This document shows, one piece after another, positions 1-34,165 of a DNA stretch of 34,165 bases. Position 1 is the first letter of the stretch, and every line of letters starts with the position of its first letter. The stretch is from IMG/VR virus record IMGVR_UViG_3300031811_000003, positions 1 through 34,165 of that record; one strand, written 5' to 3'. The notes beneath the pieces are model-generated. The model did no database searches, had not been told where the DNA came from, and saw only the letters and a program-made list of their open reading frames with translations. The stretch is from a virus. Taxonomy: Duplodnaviria > Caudoviricetes. The translations under genes were made by a program, and so were the position numbers.

Positions 1-147
1 CCCCGCCTCGCCGAAGTTCGATTTTGTCTCTTCATAAAACCTTGCCTTGCCTTGCCCTGCCTTGCCGGGCCCCGCCTCGCCCCGCCCCGCCGTAGTTCGT
101 TTTTGTCTCTTCATAAAACCTTGCCTTGCCTGGCCCTGCCCGGCCAC
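1..147. repeat. Terminal direct repeat, left copy (circular assembly overlap)
   Basis: 1-147 matches 34019-34165 except at positions 14 and 21 (a in the left copy, t in the right). Confidence 0.9.
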
Positions 148-328
148 GCCGCGCCCAGCCGCAGTTCGTTTTTGTGTCTTGAAAAAACCTTGCCTTGCCC
201 AGCCGAGCCCGGCCCCGCCCCGCCACGCCACGCCGCAGTTCGTTTTTGTATCTTGAAAAAACCTTGCCTTGCCTCGCATCGCCACGCCTCGCCAAGCCGC
301 GCCAAGCCTCGCCCGGCCACGACAAGAC
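1..328 (-). ncRNA. Array of GGC-NN pentamer units separated by 29-bp AT-rich linkers; putative guide-RNA array of the adjacent RAMP/Cas7-like gene
   Basis: On the plus strand, NNGCC tracts lie at 42-91 (10 pentamers), 121-160 (8), 190-234 (9) and 264-318 (11, one GCA variant, plus 2 degenerate to 328). Linkers lie at 13-41, 92-120, 161-189 and 235-263. The repeat is seen directly; the RNA function is inferred. Confidence 0.75.
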
Positions 329-333
329 ATCAT

Positions 334-945
334 TCACGCCACGCGGTAGCGGCCAAACCCGCCTCCACATTGAGGACGGTAATCGCCAATACCAACTATC
401 CTGCCAGCAAGTCCCAAGGCGTCTCGCACGTGGGATTCATTTAGTATCGACGTGTCGATTTCCAATGAAAGATTGACGTGCCAGTCTTCAAACTTTGGGC
501 GACACCTTAGAACCCTGGCCTTGCCGACAACCACAGGACGCTTATCTATCGTGTACTTGGTTAGAGGCTTTCCTTTCGAGTCCACTAGAATCGAGTACGG
601 CTCAGTCATAAATACAGAACCCTTGGTAGCCGTGGTAGCGGTAAGTTTCCCAAACTTCTTTCCCGTTACAGCCCTGACCATCGATTTCAGAAAACCTTCG
701 GTAGGATGATAGAAGTTCCCCTCATCATCCCTGTAGAGTCTCAATCGCGCCTCCTCCTCGTCGTCGTATTTTTTCTTGCCGCTACTCAGATCGGCCTCTT
801 GATCGACTCCGATGAAGTTGGTCGGGTTGTTATGCAACAGCGGGGTCATCCCAACTACGCGGAAAGTAAATATCTCCGGTTTCATTGTTGCCGGCGCGTT
901 AAGCGATAATGCGTCAGCGATTCGATTGGTTTCCGTTAATTTCAT
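334..945 (-). CDS. Stand-alone RAMP/Cas7-like RNA-binding protein (~203 aa)
   Basis: N-terminal strand FRVVGMTPLLH, then YHPTEGFLKSM (resembles the RAMP P.s.lKG motif) and a C-terminal Gly-rich loop GIGDYRPQCGGGFGRY. SD AGGAGA precedes ATG 945; the longer ORF start at 981 lies inside the pentamer repeat. Confidence 0.75.
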   Translation of the reverse strand: MKLTETNRIADALSLNAPATMKPEIFTFRVVGMTPLLHNNPTNFIGVDQEADLSSGKKKYDDEEEARLRLYRDDEGNFYHPTEGFLKSMVRAVTGKKFGKLTATTATKGSVFMTEPYSILVDSKGKPLTKYTIDKRPVVVGKARVLRCRPKFEDWHVNLSLEIDTSILNESHVRDALGLAGRIVGIGDYRPQCGGGFGRYRVA

Positions 946-962
946 AATGTTCTCCTGAAATA

Positions 963-1034
963 AAGTGTAAAACCTTGCCATGCCCTGCCCGGCCCGGCCA
1001 TGCCCCGCCTTGCCCGGCCCCGCCGCGCCACGCT
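963..1034 (-). repeat. Single GGC-NN pentamer unit in the leader of the RAMP gene
   Basis: 11 NNGCC pentamers at 975-1029 plus one degenerate (acgct); on the minus strand it ends in GGCAAGGTTTTACACTT, like the unit at 33969-34030. Confidence 0.9.
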
Positions 1035-1061
1035 AAAACAACTCTTTCTGCTGCTCGTCTG

Positions 1062-2522
1062 TCATGCCCATGTTTTCTTGAATAGCCGCTCCTGCTCCTC
1101 AGTGTCAGCTTGAACCCGCTTTGCTTTCCTCAGTACCGATTCGATCATAGGGTATTCGACATCTGTAACGGGAATATGGACGTTCAATGGATGCTTCGAG
1201 CCGATCCGGTTAGATCGTTTGACGGCCTGATAGTAGCTCTCGTATGAATCCTGCAAGCCGCTAAATATCTGGCGGGTTGCAATTTGCAAATTAAGACCAA
1301 AGCCTAGTATCTTTGGTTTGCTGATTAGAACTTTAATCTCGCCAGCCTTGAACGCATCAACCAATTCTTGCCGCTTCTCATACGGTGTCGATCCTGTGAT
1401 GCTTGCCGCGTCCTGCATCTCTTTTTCGAGTAGCTCTTGTTCTCGATTATAAATGCACCAGATGAGCGTTGATTCTTTCGGCCATGATTCACACAGCTCA
1501 CGAATGAACCTCGGTTTGTTGCTGTGAATGTCCTTGCCGCGATAGTTGCCTTTTGCAATCTGGCCCATGACGGAACGCGACGTAATGCCTCCCATCTTCG
1601 TTGCAAATAATTCGCCGGTTTCGATTCCGATAATGTCCGTCTGCTGTTGCGTCAGGTCAACGTCATGGATATTTACGTGAATCGGTGGGATAGTTGTTGA
1701 GTTGTCTTTCCAGCCGTAGGTTGCTGGGTTCGTCAGGAAGAAAGCCCAATGGGAAAGAGCCCGATAGAACGACGATAGGGCATGGGGTTTCAGCACCCAT
1801 CGCTCTTGCGTCTGGCCCTTGTTCACAAAGTAGGTCGATAGGAAGGCGTTGACGTTCTGGAAGTGGTCGAGGAACACGGCATGATTTGCGTACTCGATCC
1901 GATCATTGGGAGCTGGCGTGCCGGTGCAGCATAGCTTCCAATCCAGCCCTTCCCCCAATCGCAACACCACCTGGCCCCATTTCCCATAATGGCTTTTCAG
2001 CATCGAACTTTCATCGAGAACCAATGCGCCGAGATTGCCTTTTATCGTCTCGTCATTCAGTGCATCGTAATTAACGATGCCGATCCGGCCTTTTTTCTGC
2101 ATCCATTCGTTGAGGTTTTTCGACGTTAGCACATCTGGCTTGAATCCGTAGAATCGTTCGCACTCATCAACCGTCTGCTTTACTACCATCAACGGCGATA
2201 CAATAAGGGTGTGCCTACCGTCCTTGTTTGCCGCCTGCGCAAACTCCAAGAGCATCGGCGTCTTGCCGAGTCCACAGTCAGCGAAGATAGCGAACTTCCG
2301 TTTTTTTATAGCTATTTCTGTGATTGCCTTTTGGTAATCGAATAGCCAATCGCTTATCGTCCAGTTGTTTTTTCTAGCCCGCTTTTTCTTTAGTCCTAAC
2401 TGGTCGGCGTACTCGTCTGGGAAGTGTGCAACGTGCCCCCGAATCCGATACGTTGGCAGTCGCTTGATCGCCAGGAATGTTTCGTAGTCCTTCATGTCGA
2501 GCGTGTCGAGCGTAACTTGCAT
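1062..2522 (-). CDS. SF2 (SNF2/DEAD-like) helicase
   Basis: Walker A DCGLGKT, motif II LVLDESS, motif III TGTPAPN, GFGLNLQ and motif VI QAVKRSNRIG. ATG 2522 overlaps the upstream stop (TGATG), with SD GGAGGT. Confidence 0.9.
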   Translation of the reverse strand: MQVTLDTLDMKDYETFLAIKRLPTYRIRGHVAHFPDEYADQLGLKKKRARKNNWTISDWLFDYQKAITEIAIKKRKFAIFADCGLGKTPMLLEFAQAANKDGRHTLIVSPLMVVKQTVDECERFYGFKPDVLTSKNLNEWMQKKGRIGIVNYDALNDETIKGNLGALVLDESSMLKSHYGKWGQVVLRLGEGLDWKLCCTGTPAPNDRIEYANHAVFLDHFQNVNAFLSTYFVNKGQTQERWVLKPHALSSFYRALSHWAFFLTNPATYGWKDNSTTIPPIHVNIHDVDLTQQQTDIIGIETGELFATKMGGITSRSVMGQIAKGNYRGKDIHSNKPRFIRELCESWPKESTLIWCIYNREQELLEKEMQDAASITGSTPYEKRQELVDAFKAGEIKVLISKPKILGFGLNLQIATRQIFSGLQDSYESYYQAVKRSNRIGSKHPLNVHIPVTDVEYPMIESVLRKAKRVQADTEEQERLFKKTWA

Positions 2523-3518: not shown

Positions 3519-3824
3519 TCAAAACAACTCTTTCTGCTCCTGCCGTTTCGGTTTCGTGACGGACCAGACAACCGCCCACCTACCGCTTGTTGTGCGGCGC
3601 TTCTTCTGAGAGTCTTCGATAACACCCACCTCAACCAGCTCCACCCTCCTGGGCCTTTGGGTCGATGGATTCAGGCGTAGCCCTATCTGAATCTCTTCAT
3701 CTGTCGCGCCCCAGTCGCCAAACTGCACAATGAATCTGTACACATCCCCGCGCAACGTGTCTGCTGTTGCGAGGATCTTCACGGCAGCCGCTCGACTTGT
3801 CGCACTGTGCTGTTGAAACTTCAC
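3519..3824 (-). CDS. Small winged-HTH DNA-binding protein
   Basis: GATDEEI..LRLNPSTQRPRRVELVEVGVI..TTSGRWAVVW pattern common in phage wHTH proteins; overlaps the upstream stop. Confidence 0.65.
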   Translation of the reverse strand: MKFQQHSATSRAAAVKILATADTLRGDVYRFIVQFGDWGATDEEIQIGLRLNPSTQRPRRVELVEVGVIEDSQKKRRTTSGRWAVVWSVTKPKRQEQKELF

Positions 3825-28210: not shown

Positions 28211-28978
28211 TCACTTTCTTCTGTTGCGGCTCTCGTTGAGCCAGGAAGTAATACCTTTGGGAGTCTTTGAATTCATGTCGTATATCTTGACGATTCCGCC
28301 GTGAGATACAGTTACGGCTGGTAGCTTGCGAATGTTTCTTGGTGCCCCACCGTTTGAAACATCTACCCAAACAGCGTGAAAGTATCCTTCGACAATCGAA
28401 ACCACTTCAGGACTTTTCAAAACGTCTCGCTTGAATGCTTGGCACGGTTTACACCATGAAGCGGTGTAGAAAGTAAGGACTGGCTTGACTGGCTTTGCTG
28501 GCGGTTCGATAAGCCACGATATTCTAGACGGAATTCGTTGTGCCGCCGCCTTGGTTGCGACAGTTTGCAAACGTCGCTCAATGTTTTCTAGCCGTTTCTC
28601 TAGAGATGTTAACTGCTTGTCACACCGCAGGCCAAAATCGTAAAGGGCTTGTGATATGTTTTGGATTCTACGCCGCTCGTCTACAGGATTCCCTGCACCC
28701 ACGCAAACCGGGCAAGGTATTATTATCGTTCCATCTCCTAGCTCGCCATCTCCACCGCAGTTTTCACAGTCGTCGCTTGGCGTGGGTTCTTCGTGGTCTT
28801 CCTCAAACGATGCGTAGCTTAGTGCAACCGCTGCGTGAGACCGGCCAATAACCACCGCGCCGCCTTCGTCGGTGAATCCTGGTGTTTCTGGGACGCAACC
28901 GCTAAGGATCACCAGAACTCCAATCCCAAGTATTAGCGACCTCAGACCAAGTAATCTTCTGTGGAGGAAAGCCTTCAA
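28211..28978 (-). CDS. Lipoprotein with a CxxCxGxG zinc-finger segment, coiled coil and C-terminal thioredoxin domain
   Basis: Lipobox LSGC after a hydrophobic stretch; CENCGGDG..CPVCVGAG; FYTASWCKPCQAF and LP (cis-Pro). Start uncertain (TTG 28978 or ATG 29002). Confidence 0.78.
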   Translation of the reverse strand: MKAFLHRRLLGLRSLILGIGVLVILSGCVPETPGFTDEGGAVVIGRSHAAVALSYASFEEDHEEPTPSDDCENCGGDGELGDGTIIIPCPVCVGAGNPVDERRRIQNISQALYDFGLRCDKQLTSLEKRLENIERRLQTVATKAAAQRIPSRISWLIEPPAKPVKPVLTFYTASWCKPCQAFKRDVLKSPEVVSIVEGYFHAVWVDVSNGGAPRNIRKLPAVTVSHGGIVKIYDMNSKTPKGITSWLNESRNRRK

Positions 28979-29957
28979 CTGACGAGAAAGCGAACGAATC
29001 ATTAGCCCGAAGTTGCCGCCCTGCATCCTCGCTGGTAGTCCACCAAGAACAGTCCGATACCGCCTCACACTCGGTGCCGGGATCTGGCCCGCTGCAACTT
29101 TTTCCCCATGACTGAAATTGTCGAAATTGCGGTTCATTCTTAACCCATCTGATTCCTGCGAATGCCATTTGATGCGCCCACTGTCCAGACGCGAGGCAAA
29201 CCCCATTTTTGTTTCTTTGCATTCGCCCAAAACCGACCATAGAGGCAACGCTTACTGGGTATCCGTTTTGCAACGCTGATGCTAATTCCTCGGTAGTTTT
29301 CACCGACGTGACTGTTTTGCATGGGTGTTCCTGCGCTATCTTGTCAAGTAAACCATCAGCACGCCCTGCGTCACTGACGCCACCGCAACCGAAGTTTCCC
29401 CATTCTTTGGCGCGGTTCTTGTCGTATGCTCTAAGGTCATGTTCGTCGACATCAGTCGCCGCTGAGTAATCTTTACGAAGCACGACCCCACCGGAATCTT
29501 GGAGCCATTTGGCTGCCGCGCTTCCCCACGAGCCGTCCTGATATCCACCAAGTTTGCCGCCATTCGCTTCAACTCTCGCGCCACCATAGATTGGCTCTGT
29601 CGCCGCTTCTTCCGTCCATTCACTCTGGCCGTTCTTCGCTTGGATCGCCAGCAGAATTGTCACGCACAATTCCGCCCCCCACGAAACACAGTCGCCTATA
29701 CCTTGTGAACCTCGCTTCCAATTAGGCTTTGCTTCTATCAGCGGTCGCCAGAGGTCTACATCTATTCGGTCAGTGTGCATTACTTCGCCAGCCTCGCCAA
29801 ATCTTGGCACAGACAGCGAAGAAACGAATCTTTCGGTATCCTCAACGTGCGGCAGGTAACCGCAAAACTCAGGTATTTTAGTCGGGTCGAATGTCAGCCC
29901 TTGTCTACCCTTTCTACTTTCAGTTCCAGTCCGCAGTGCGCACAAGCGGCCAAGCAT
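28902..29957 (-). CDS. Papain-like (C1-type) cysteine peptidase
   Basis: QGIGDCVSWG (oxyanion Gln and catalytic Cys), WAHQMAFAG (His), QSWG in place of NSWG. Start uncertain, possibly CTG 29897. Confidence 0.8.
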   Translation of the reverse strand: MLGRLCALRTGTESRKGRQGLTFDPTKIPEFCGYLPHVEDTERFVSSLSVPRFGEAGEVMHTDRIDVDLWRPLIEAKPNWKRGSQGIGDCVSWGAELCVTILLAIQAKNGQSEWTEEAATEPIYGGARVEANGGKLGGYQDGSWGSAAAKWLQDSGGVVLRKDYSAATDVDEHDLRAYDKNRAKEWGNFGCGGVSDAGRADGLLDKIAQEHPCKTVTSVKTTEELASALQNGYPVSVASMVGFGRMQRNKNGVCLASGQWAHQMAFAGIRWVKNEPQFRQFQSWGKSCSGPDPGTECEAVSDCSWWTTSEDAGRQLRANDSFAFSSVEGFPPQKITWSEVANTWDWSSGDP

Positions 29958-32517: not shown

Positions 32518-33253
32518 TCGTTAGATACTCCTTGGCCGCAGCGAACGTGCCGAGTGGGTCTGCTATACCGTTGCTTTCGCTGGCGTCCCACGTGGCTGGG
32601 TCATCGTCATAGTGACCGTCACGCAACCACCTCAGAATCCCCCATGCATATTTCGACCGGCCCTTTGCAGAAGCCTGATACTCGCAAAGCCGAGCAAGTA
32701 GATATTCGTGCGGATCGCCAGCGATTGCATCGCCAACGGAATCGACAGCTTGCTCGTATCGTTTCCGGCACCCTGCTTTTCCCTGCTTTGAATCTACAGC
32801 GAGCCAGAACGCATCGAAACCTGATGCCGCCTCTTGTCTCTCTTGTCTCTTCTGTCTTCTGTCTTCAGTCTTCAGTCTTCTGTCTTCAGCAGACAAGCTA
32901 GCTTCTAGCTCTAGCTTTGCTCTAGCTTTGCTAAGTCCGCCTTTGCGTCCTGCTGCCGCCATCCTAGTCGACCTATCTCGCACTTGTTTTCTAATGTTTT
33001 CGAGCCGACTGTTGCGAAGTACTCCGTCGACAATTTCAAATTTACAAGAGATTTCATGCCAGTCTTCGGCGAATTGTTCGTCGGGAATCCCGATCATTCT
33101 GGCCAACTTTTCTGGCTCAAAAGGTAGCTCGGCTTGCGTCCACTCATAGCAAAGCAGAAGCAAAAAGGTAGCTTTGCTAGAGTGGGAAAGGCCAGCCGTG
33201 CCTACCAGCCAATCAGCTGGGTAAAATTGAAAGCTGGGTGGTGCTTTTGCCAT
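32507..33253 (-). CDS. Replication initiator with a DUF1376/YdaU-like N-terminus
   Basis: PSFQFYPADWL..G.L.N.RL..AGRKGG; C-terminal FDAFW..KQGK..WLRDGHYDD; SD GGAGG before ATG 33253. Confidence 0.82.
   Translation of the reverse strand: MAKAPPSFQFYPADWLVGTAGLSHSSKATFLLLLCYEWTQAELPFEPEKLARMIGIPDEQFAEDWHEISCKFEIVDGVLRNSRLENIRKQVRDRSTRMAAAGRKGGLSKARAKLELEASLSAEDRRLKTEDRRQKRQERQEAASGFDAFWLAVDSKQGKAGCRKRYEQAVDSVGDAIAGDPHEYLLARLCEYQASAKGRSKYAWGILRWLRDGHYDDDPATWDASESNGIADPLGTFAAAKEYLTNGE
32831..32932. repeat. Iteron-like short repeats inside the initiator gene (candidate origin)
   Basis: CTCTTGTCT x2 (32831-32848), WGTCTTC x5 (32853-32887), GCTCTAGCTTT x2 (32908-32929). Confidence 0.65.
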
Positions 33254-33287
33254 GTCCTTCCTCCTGTTTTGATACCCCGCCACGCGA

Positions 33288-33947
33288 CTAAACAACAGAA
33301 GGCACACCATCAAGAAGCTCGCGTAACTTTATCAGCCGTTCAACCAACCGCTCATCAGAGAGGTCTATCAGCTCAGACTCAATAAGCTCAATCAATTGAT
33401 TGACATAAAACACTTGGCGCATACCAGACAGGTTCTCATTGGCTTTTTGTTGTCGCTTCGTTAATTTCATGCCCGCCTTGTGCTGTATGGTTCTCTTGAG
33501 CGGTATAGTCAAATTGCCCATTTTTGCAGTGCGTCCTGACAGAAGCCTCGTTGCCTTTTCTATTGGTATACGCAACACACCAGCCACTGAATCGGCGGGT
33601 ATCCCCAGCCGCTCAGCCACAATGAGGCAGTGTGTCCTATCGCAGGTGTCTAGCTTTGCGCCGTGACTTGCGTTGAATTTTATTGCATCTAAGAACATAT
33701 CAGCCTCTGTCTGGTATACCTTTTCTATGACAGCGATTTCAGCGTCAGCACCAAATACCTTGATCGTTGCTTTGACGCGATGGACACCATCGACGACCCG
33801 CTTGCTTTTCTTGTCAGCAATGACAGGAGGCAGCTCGCCCCCTTCAGCAATAACATCAGACAATGCGCGGACGTTGTGCGAGTCAACATTGTTTCGAGGG
33901 TACAGATCAAAATCTAGAATCAACTCCGCTGCCTTCATCTTCCTCAT
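33288..33947 (-). CDS. ParB/Sulfiredoxin-like N-terminal domain protein
   Basis: LYPR, LPPVIAD..VVDGVHRVKA, NASHG..L, followed by an HTH-like segment; SD AAAGGA. Confidence 0.8.
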   Translation of the reverse strand: MRKMKAAELILDFDLYPRNNVDSHNVRALSDVIAEGGELPPVIADKKSKRVVDGVHRVKATIKVFGADAEIAVIEKVYQTEADMFLDAIKFNASHGAKLDTCDRTHCLIVAERLGIPADSVAGVLRIPIEKATRLLSGRTAKMGNLTIPLKRTIQHKAGMKLTKRQQKANENLSGMRQVFYVNQLIELIESELIDLSDERLVERLIKLRELLDGVPSVV

Positions 33948-33968
33948 GGTATATCCTTTCCAGTGTTT

Positions 33969-34165
33969 AAGTGTAAAACCTTGCCTTGCCTTGCCGAGCC
34001 CGGCCGCGCCGCGCCACGCCCCGCCTCGCCGTAGTTCGTTTTTGTCTCTTCATAAAACCTTGCCTTGCCTTGCCCTGCCTTGCCGGGCCCCGCCTCGCCC
34101 CGCCCCGCCGTAGTTCGTTTTTGTCTCTTCATAAAACCTTGCCTTGCCTGGCCCTGCCCGGCCAC
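33969..34165 (-). ncRNA. Distal part of the GGC-NN unit array (continues across the junction into 1-328)
   Basis: 10 NNGCC pentamers at 33981-34030, linker at 34031-34059, then copies of the units seen at 42-147. Confidence 0.75.
34019..34165. repeat. Terminal direct repeat, right copy
   Basis: Matches 1-147 with 2 mismatches. Confidence 0.9.

Follow-up and report, generated by a model that had tools for sequence, protein, structure and literature searches.

A Vipr RAMP, six GGY/NN repeat tracts and a ParB-fold partner point to a VIPR system in an uncultured marine phage

Experiments on VIPR, first described in 2026, cover two type II systems. In the SUSP1 system, one subunit of the RAMP protein Vipr occupies each GGY of a guide RNA, the NN dinucleotides are displayed, and a gapped target is silenced without a nuclease (10.64898/2026.04.26.720920). 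The same mechanism, with one subunit per pentamer and DNA read at two bases in three, is set out in 10.64898/2026.10.15.759431. Published guide tracts comprise at least 4 units and typically 9 to 16, and the discovery preprint lists six accessory genes (vaps), some of them described as "predicted DNA binding proteins" (10.64898/2026.04.26.720920).

The 34,165-nucleotide window analyzed here encodes a Vipr RAMP, six GGY/NN tracts and a ParB-fold partner, which likely make up a VIPR system directed against rival phages or satellites, whose genes it would silence through RNA-guided DNA binding without cutting (probability about 0.88). The preliminary description had pointed to VIPR systems and regarded the locus as a possible new member rather than a new class. 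Such systems exist (10.64898/2026.04.26.720920), and homology to SUSP1 Vipr makes the locus a member of the class published in 2026; it is no new class. Its type is other than type II, and its branch may already be among the seven published VIPR types. As in the SUSP1 type II system (10.64898/2026.04.26.720920; PDB 36pp), a homologous RAMP of about 200 residues with a G-loop D-aromatic-R motif and a thumb Arg is borne by a phage without cas genes, accompanied by YNNGG tracts on the strand of the gene, one guide upstream, an array downstream and a single accessory gene.

The window is the whole circular genome of a tailed phage. Its final 147 nt (34019 to 34165, an unstranded assembly overlap) copy positions 1 to 147 with 2 mismatches, so that the genome is 34,018 bp long. 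The minus strand carries nearly all genes. Pfam and PHROGs recognized terminase, portal, Clp protease, HK97-type capsid, head-tail and tape-measure genes, together with RusA, YqaJ, ERF, a DNA methylase, an SNF2-like helicase and a DUF1376 replication protein. The Pfam scan covered 103 of the 169 ORFs and revealed no integrase in them; most of the others are short frames on the plus strand. A promoter scan returned 2 weak sites against 0.9 expected. The locus was found in 16 runs among the matches listed, all 16 of seawater or marine DNA, and no RNA dataset was among the runs listed with it. When contigs of four runs were aligned, X1 (perhaps the source sample) and X2 each yielded exact pieces, and X4 a relative at 93-96%. 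Planctomycete MAGs were the only named relatives among the matches listed (Vipr 62%, terminase 52%), a weak hint to the host.

Two further features of the genome deserve mention. Two long minus-strand ORFs of 345 and 351 aa overlap in different frames at 28211-29957, the first of them with a C-terminal thioredoxin-like domain. A 21-nt direct repeat at 1035-1055 and 3521-3541 closes a frame with Q-K-E-L-F-stop in each copy: the ORF 3824-3519, and a short frame that overlaps the end of the helicase gene and stops just before the first repeat tract. These ends resemble what we take to be a sliding-clamp-binding motif.

The vipr gene lies on the minus strand at 334..945 and encodes a 203-aa RAMP with an RRM core, thumb and G-loop, as judged from sequence, profile and model. 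The RAMP-like ORF with a terminal Gly-rich loop noted earlier, with its strand left unstated, is thus borne out and reads from 945 to 334. A Shine-Dalgarno-like stretch stands 7 nt ahead of the start at 945, and a 96%-identical homologue is likewise 203 aa long; an in-frame ATG at 981 (215 aa) falls within the upstream repeat tract. The sole significant match among 177,635 PDB sequences was SUSP1 Vipr (36pp_D), at E 3.4e-8 with the single sequence; a profile of 105 sequences gave E 1.3e-13 with the same chain. The structure prediction that had been proposed as a check of the RAMP/Cas7 fold yielded a model with pLDDT 86, for which Csm3/Cas7-group RAMPs lead both structure searches (Foldseek E 1e-5; 6ae2_B with Z 10.8 and rmsd 3.0 over 142 aligned residues). 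Pfam, NCBIfam and PADLOC give the protein no name, and PHROG 4652, of unknown function, matches it. Homologues number 178, the best 120 of the 178 at 54% identity or more.

This fold is shared with the Cas7/Csm3 backbone of class 1 CRISPR-Cas (Z 8-11). However, identity to those proteins is 6-14%, the guides are built of five-base repeats, and Cas1/2/3/5/6/8/10 and a CRISPR array are missing. The preliminary description had recognized no cas genes, and indeed no Cas family appeared among the 103 of 169 ORFs scanned with Pfam or the 13 ORFs examined with PADLOC, nor was there a CRISPR array among the direct repeats of the genome. A class 1 CRISPR-Cas system was therefore rejected, these scans having found neither an array nor Cas5, Cas6 or a large subunit.

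Residues of SUSP1 Vipr were mapped through a near-identical protein of phage SeKF_63, which is about 29% identical to the window's Vipr. The GGY-binding residues R138, D177 and R179 correspond to R149, D188 and R190, invariant in 105/105 relatives, and W178 to Y189, a Tyr in 98/105. Among DNA contacts, G87 equals G99 (invariant, 105/105) and K88 equals K100 (Lys in 104/105); R39 equals K58, Lys in 99 of the 105 relatives, and H17 aligns to Asn. K33 and K82, essential in SUSP1 Vipr according to 10.64898/2026.04.26.720927, align to A51 and T94 in this distant alignment (about 29% identity), and an invariant K97 lies three residues from the K82-aligned position. The window's protein thus differs from the SUSP1-like protein of SeKF_63 in its low identity of about 29% and from SUSP1 Vipr in having no Lys at the K33- and K82-aligned positions.

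Read along the minus strand, the locus runs from the helicase gene through U0, vipr, U1 to U5 and the ParB-like gene to the replication gene. U0 (973..1032, minus), an upstream guide tract of 12 YNNGG units, starts directly after a stop codon and is followed by a U-rich 3' tail (946..972, minus) with the likely ribosome-binding site of vipr. Twelve nucleotides past the vipr stop begins the downstream array, all on the minus strand: U1 (262..321; 12 units, one of them degenerate), U2 (188..237; 10 units), U3 (119..163; 9 units), U4 (40..94; 11 units) and U5 (33979..34033; 11 units), the last lying across the circular junction and found exactly in a contig of run X1 (33100-34051). These are the 8 to 11 GGC-NN pentamers per unit of the preliminary description, the same tracts counting 9 to 12 units as YNNGG, a length that fits published VIPR tracts. 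Its tally of five downstream units and one upstream is also right once the duplicated end is counted once, since the strict tracts at 34055-34163 repeat U4 and part of U3 and add no units. U1 to U5 are joined by four nearly identical 24-nt linkers in two versions (29 nt in the GGC-NN register), at 238..261 (A/U-rich, with a weak hairpin at best), 164..187, 95..118 and 16..39, all minus strand, the last equal to 34034-34057 in the duplicated end. The 29-nt linker claimed for each unit therefore holds for the four junctions among U1 to U5. U0 and U5, in contrast, are each followed by a U-rich tail of another kind, in which a ribosome-binding-like site is present; the U5 tail (33948..33978, minus) takes the place of the 24-nt linker, opens like the U0 tail and probably provides the ribosome-binding site for the ParB-like gene.

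The six tracts of 9 to 12 units are far beyond chance. Outside them, YNNGG runs in the genome reach at most 2-3 units, the maximum in 100 Markov-simulated genomes was 2-4 in 99 and 6 in 1, and 10,000 shuffles of the array region gave a maximum of 5 units. An expansion of simple repeats, or an assembly artefact at the contig junction with an unrelated gene adjoining, might be suggested by the fall of the 147-nt terminal overlap within the array. Moreover, no public contig among those listed bridges U3 to U5, positions 1-95 and 34052-34165 having been skipped as repeats. Yet the NN string differs from tract to tract, the spans 102-199, 170-989 and 33100-34051 (run X1, possibly the source sample) and 201-354 (X2) are matched exactly by contigs, and dozens of independent loci share this architecture. 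The artefact is thus largely refuted already, and we regard its likelihood as negligible.

Among the differences listed for aligned public contigs, some of which align by repeat only, the eight inside U0 and U5 all fall at NN, and the one in U1 is a C/T change at Y. U2 (188-237) and U5 (33979-34033) differ at 5 bases over a 51-nt alignment, and from their sequences one may have arisen from the other. The proposal that the NN dinucleotides jointly specify the target needs trimming. The last two NN are near-constant AA: all six guides end in AA, with at least two terminal AA in five of them, so that only some 6 to 11 positions per guide are informative, fewer than the units. Translation of the guides as codons gave no recognizable conserved motif. 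U4 read in this way loosely resembles what we take to be a helicase Walker A motif; as a Walker A it was rejected, a mismatch being needed at the invariant Gly, with 1 match against 13 controls.

The linkers seem to depart from the SUSP1 plan. Whereas an invariant structured 3' tail is a VIPR hallmark, here the linker is conserved within the phage but not across the clade, and its local folds are no better than shuffles (z 0.2 to 0.6). No sign of a pseudoknot was found in the 24-nt linkers, which seem unlike the SUSP1 ones in this; the window also differs from SUSP1 in having Y nearly always C and the last two NN near-constant AA. A hammerhead-ribozyme linker was rejected, as Rfam gave no ribozyme and no hammerhead family match in window 1-1100 at E up to 10 and the linkers are only 24 nt long.

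The tails of U0 and U5 bear on another reading, in which Vipr would regulate itself at the RNA level, throttling translation of vipr and the ParB-like gene by binding U0 and U5, with no current DNA target. The likely ribosome-binding sites in these tails lie 27-31 nt past the last repeat, and under a strict pattern the same layout recurs at 7/15 vipr starts and 10/16 ParB-like starts in relatives. A solo tract also precedes a RecT-like-looking gene in a planctomycete MAG in which no vipr was found, and no target of the window's guides came to light. However, four internal units adjoin no gene, and NN varies while GGC is fixed, a variation unneeded for mere binding. Further, the vrRNA1 of SUSP1 also lies upstream of vipr and yet is a working DNA guide (10.64898/2026.04.26.720920), and failure to find targets is expected if host and rivals are unsampled, which is probably so. 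RNA self-regulation as the main role is very unlikely, although translational feedback may well coexist with targeting. The solo tract itself (L108:2501-2541, minus, Planctomycetaceae MAG) is a short GGC-NN tract with the same 3' end and U-run, placed just ahead of the RecT-like-looking gene start in a phage-like recombination region; no vipr was found in this possibly incomplete genome.

Related loci repeat the arrangement of the window. The expectation that homologues would be flanked by GGY repeats with five-nucleotide periodicity was borne out by same-strand tracts of at least 4 units within 1.5 kb in 49/64 related loci, against 3/64 on the opposite strand. With at least 5 units, the counts were 33 of 57 non-redundant loci (7 duplicates dropped) versus 1 of 57. 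Homology to SUSP1 Vipr, the RAMP fold, the invariant GGY-binding residues and these tracts in 49 of 64 loci together identify a VIPR system. In 15/64 related loci no strict YNNGG tract was present, among them 12 that are from IMG/VR or phage-like; several of these 12 belong to a sub-branch (L058-L062) that keeps a distant ParB-like partner. L015 has a Vipr homologue with no strict tract and a degenerate GTC-type five-base pattern upstream. In the near clade (85 tracts from 19 chosen loci), Y is C in 818/898 units, all 16 dinucleotides are present at NN, and AA is the last NN in 52/85 tracts and the second-last in 48/85; relatives' linkers have little in common except a U-run. No close Viprs were found in GTDB, and among genomes of the planctomycete MAG's phylum 8 of 401 held Viprs, distant ones only.

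Several of these loci are of interest in their own right. About 30 tracts with short linkers lie between vipr and the ParB-like gene at L017:1693-4000, and at L008:4581-6010 a small gene and the ParB-like gene stand between tracts, which go on past the latter gene. Two cultured phages, Pseudomonas phage LESphi2 (L065, OQ594955.1) and Gordonia phage Ecliptus (L068, OP820472.1), each carry an unannotated Vipr homologue adjoining YNNGG tracts.

The preliminary description took the RAMP gene to stand alone, and here it was mistaken. After the array, at 33288..33947 on the minus strand, comes a 219-aa accessory gene whose product starts with a ParB-CTPase-fold domain followed by helical domains. 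Weak PHROG ParB matches are backed by a model (pLDDT 94) in which residues 1-140 match ParB, KorB and Noc at Z 13.3-13.8, the remainder being unmatched. Myxococcus ParB gave Z 13.8 and rmsd 1.8-2.4 over 92 aligned residues, and a KorB-KorA-DNA chain aligns over 134 residues. In the GxxR motif, G54, H56 and R57 are invariant in 108/108 homologues, and the neighboring Y-P-R and N-x-x-H-G motifs occur in 107-108 of the 108.

A tree of 64 Viprs (leaving out 7 duplicates, one L106 repeat and 9 rows under 130 aa) placed the window in a 29-row branch with support 91/96; the position of this branch as sister of the SUSP1-like Viprs is poorly supported (84/53). The partner is present in 24/29 rows of this branch, the window counted, and in 1/35 Viprs outside it, as a weak match. 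The five branch rows without a full partner comprise one contig-end fragment and four loci whose contigs end 114-1030 nt away on at least one side. In relatives, the partner is found either upstream or downstream of vipr. With vipr and this one accessory gene, the locus has the minimal two-gene makeup of VIPR. Membership in a replication module was rejected, as the neighboring replication and helicase genes have matches in 0/68 loci. The window is also unlike SUSP1 in that its accessory gene is of ParB fold and placed after the array, with no vap1. Identity with vap1 was rejected on the basis of a different fold and profile E values of 0.06 or worse against the genes that follow vipr in SeKF_63, LESphi2, Vibrio 1.266 and Ecliptus. 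The word "ParB" occurs nowhere in three VIPR preprints and a PMC supplement when these are searched as text, the figure and data files of the vap classification lying outside this search, nor in the text of 10.64898/2026.10.21.760802. By text and legends, VIPR types VI and VII and the staggered-array VIPRs (10.64898/2026.04.26.720920) likewise have closely packed arrays, and their accessories are given there simply as predicted DNA-binding proteins.

The partner gene also contains a perfect 16-bp palindrome (33388-33403), the longest in the genome and single-copy. As a parS site it was rejected, mean pairing being 3.7 versus 3.5 upon synonymous recoding in 22 genes (window included); it is not conserved in relatives, one at 96% differing within it.

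A ParB-fold partner raises the question of which protein does the silencing. The locus could be VIPR by descent with the ParB-fold protein as its main effector. The filament would then mark, in a programmable way, where a sliding clamp is loaded or stopped, and the outcome would be long-range silencing or a link between the phage genome and other DNA instead of simple roadblock repression. The tight linkage of the partner in either gene order, its conserved GxxR, Y-P-R and N-x-x-H-G motifs and its fold similarity to ParB, KorB and Noc are consistent with this. As in KorB-KorA of plasmid RK2 and ParB CTPase clamps (PMC11790492; PMC12704722), the partner has an N-terminal ParB-CTPase fold with GxxR, and the former source describes KorA acting on the KorB clamp for long-range silencing. 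There is also a parallel in TIGR-TasA with tasParB (PMC12045711), where a phage-borne, RNA-guided DNA binder without a nuclease shares its operon with a ParB-like gene and guide arrays lie around and between the genes. Tas, however, is a Nop-domain protein with dual-repeat guides and is unrelated to RAMPs. Against a ParB-type effector, PMC12704722 states that nucleotide choice is unpredictable for ParB-CTPase-like folds, and sulfiredoxin and kinases share the fold of the partner. Unlike the KorB and ParB clamps, the window has no ParA among the scanned ORFs (Pfam, 103/169) and no conserved operator was found, there being no conserved parS-like site in the partner homologues compared; the C-terminal part of the partner is unmatched. 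In addition, SUSP1 Vipr represses in reporter assays without any vap (10.64898/2026.04.26.720920). We therefore consider the ParB-fold protein rather unlikely as main effector and keep to RNA-guided silencing by Vipr itself.

Searches for targets used the one-base-skip rule published for SUSP1. Within the phage genome, the best self-target scores were at shuffle level for skips 0 to 3, and nothing rose above the null in 68 related loci. Exact IMG/VR scans, one per guide with 16-18 fixed bases, returned 1, 1, 9, 3, 15 and 8 stretches for the six guides; these extend no better than chance and show no convergence. The best full-guide IMG/VR scores were 18/24, 19/24, 19/20, 17/18, 18/22 and 18/22. 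The 19/20 site of U2, in an A/T-rich, apparently intergenic and promoter-like stretch of L073, is left unclaimed, as an estimated chance of about a quarter attaches to it given 6 seed matches. Three unrelated matches of U5 were set aside as well: they are wobble-aligned, yet the genes that hold them are not homologous. In about 400 genomes of the planctomycete MAG's phylum, matches versus reversed-pattern controls were 19/8 for U0, 25/19 for U1 and 1/13 for U4, all at the mismatch limit (three mismatches for U0), and no gene was common to the target sites among 39 sites (19 for U0) except in one near-identical pair. When 71 guides of the clade were compared with 350 kb, no excess appeared for any skip, skip 1 included. 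With no target above chance, the skip rule on this branch is assumed from SUSP1.

By analogy with SUSP1 (10.64898/2026.04.26.720920; 10.64898/2026.04.26.720927), the tracts would be transcribed and released as vrRNAs of about 70-90 nt, Vipr would polymerize with one subunit per pentamer, burying GGY and presenting NN, and the filament would read double-stranded DNA as NN-skip-NN, two bases in three, thereby blocking the rival's transcription. The guides may be cut from an early-gene transcript at the A/U-rich linkers while the filament protects them, and the near-constant 3' AA units might act as a scaffold or an easily melted start. The ParB-fold protein might replace vap1 and strengthen repression, probably as a nucleotide-gated DNA clamp gathering at the bound filament. 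A step further would be a VIPR type outside the seven published, with an RNA-guided RAMP filament that draws in or stops a nucleotide-gated sliding clamp of ParB type. We find this quite unlikely; if true, it would provide a PAM-free loading site that can be programmed to silence at long range or to tether DNA, the same solution as that of the unrelated TIGR-TasA with tasParB.

To conclude, the locus offers a complete and compact VIPR, contained in a closed phage genome and belonging to a distant branch that is widespread and uncultured. It allows the one-base-skip code to be tested in a system that seems to lack both the pseudoknot tail and two of the residues essential in SUSP1. As to the role of accessory vaps, the ParB-fold partner suggests a sliding clamp coupled to an RNA guide.
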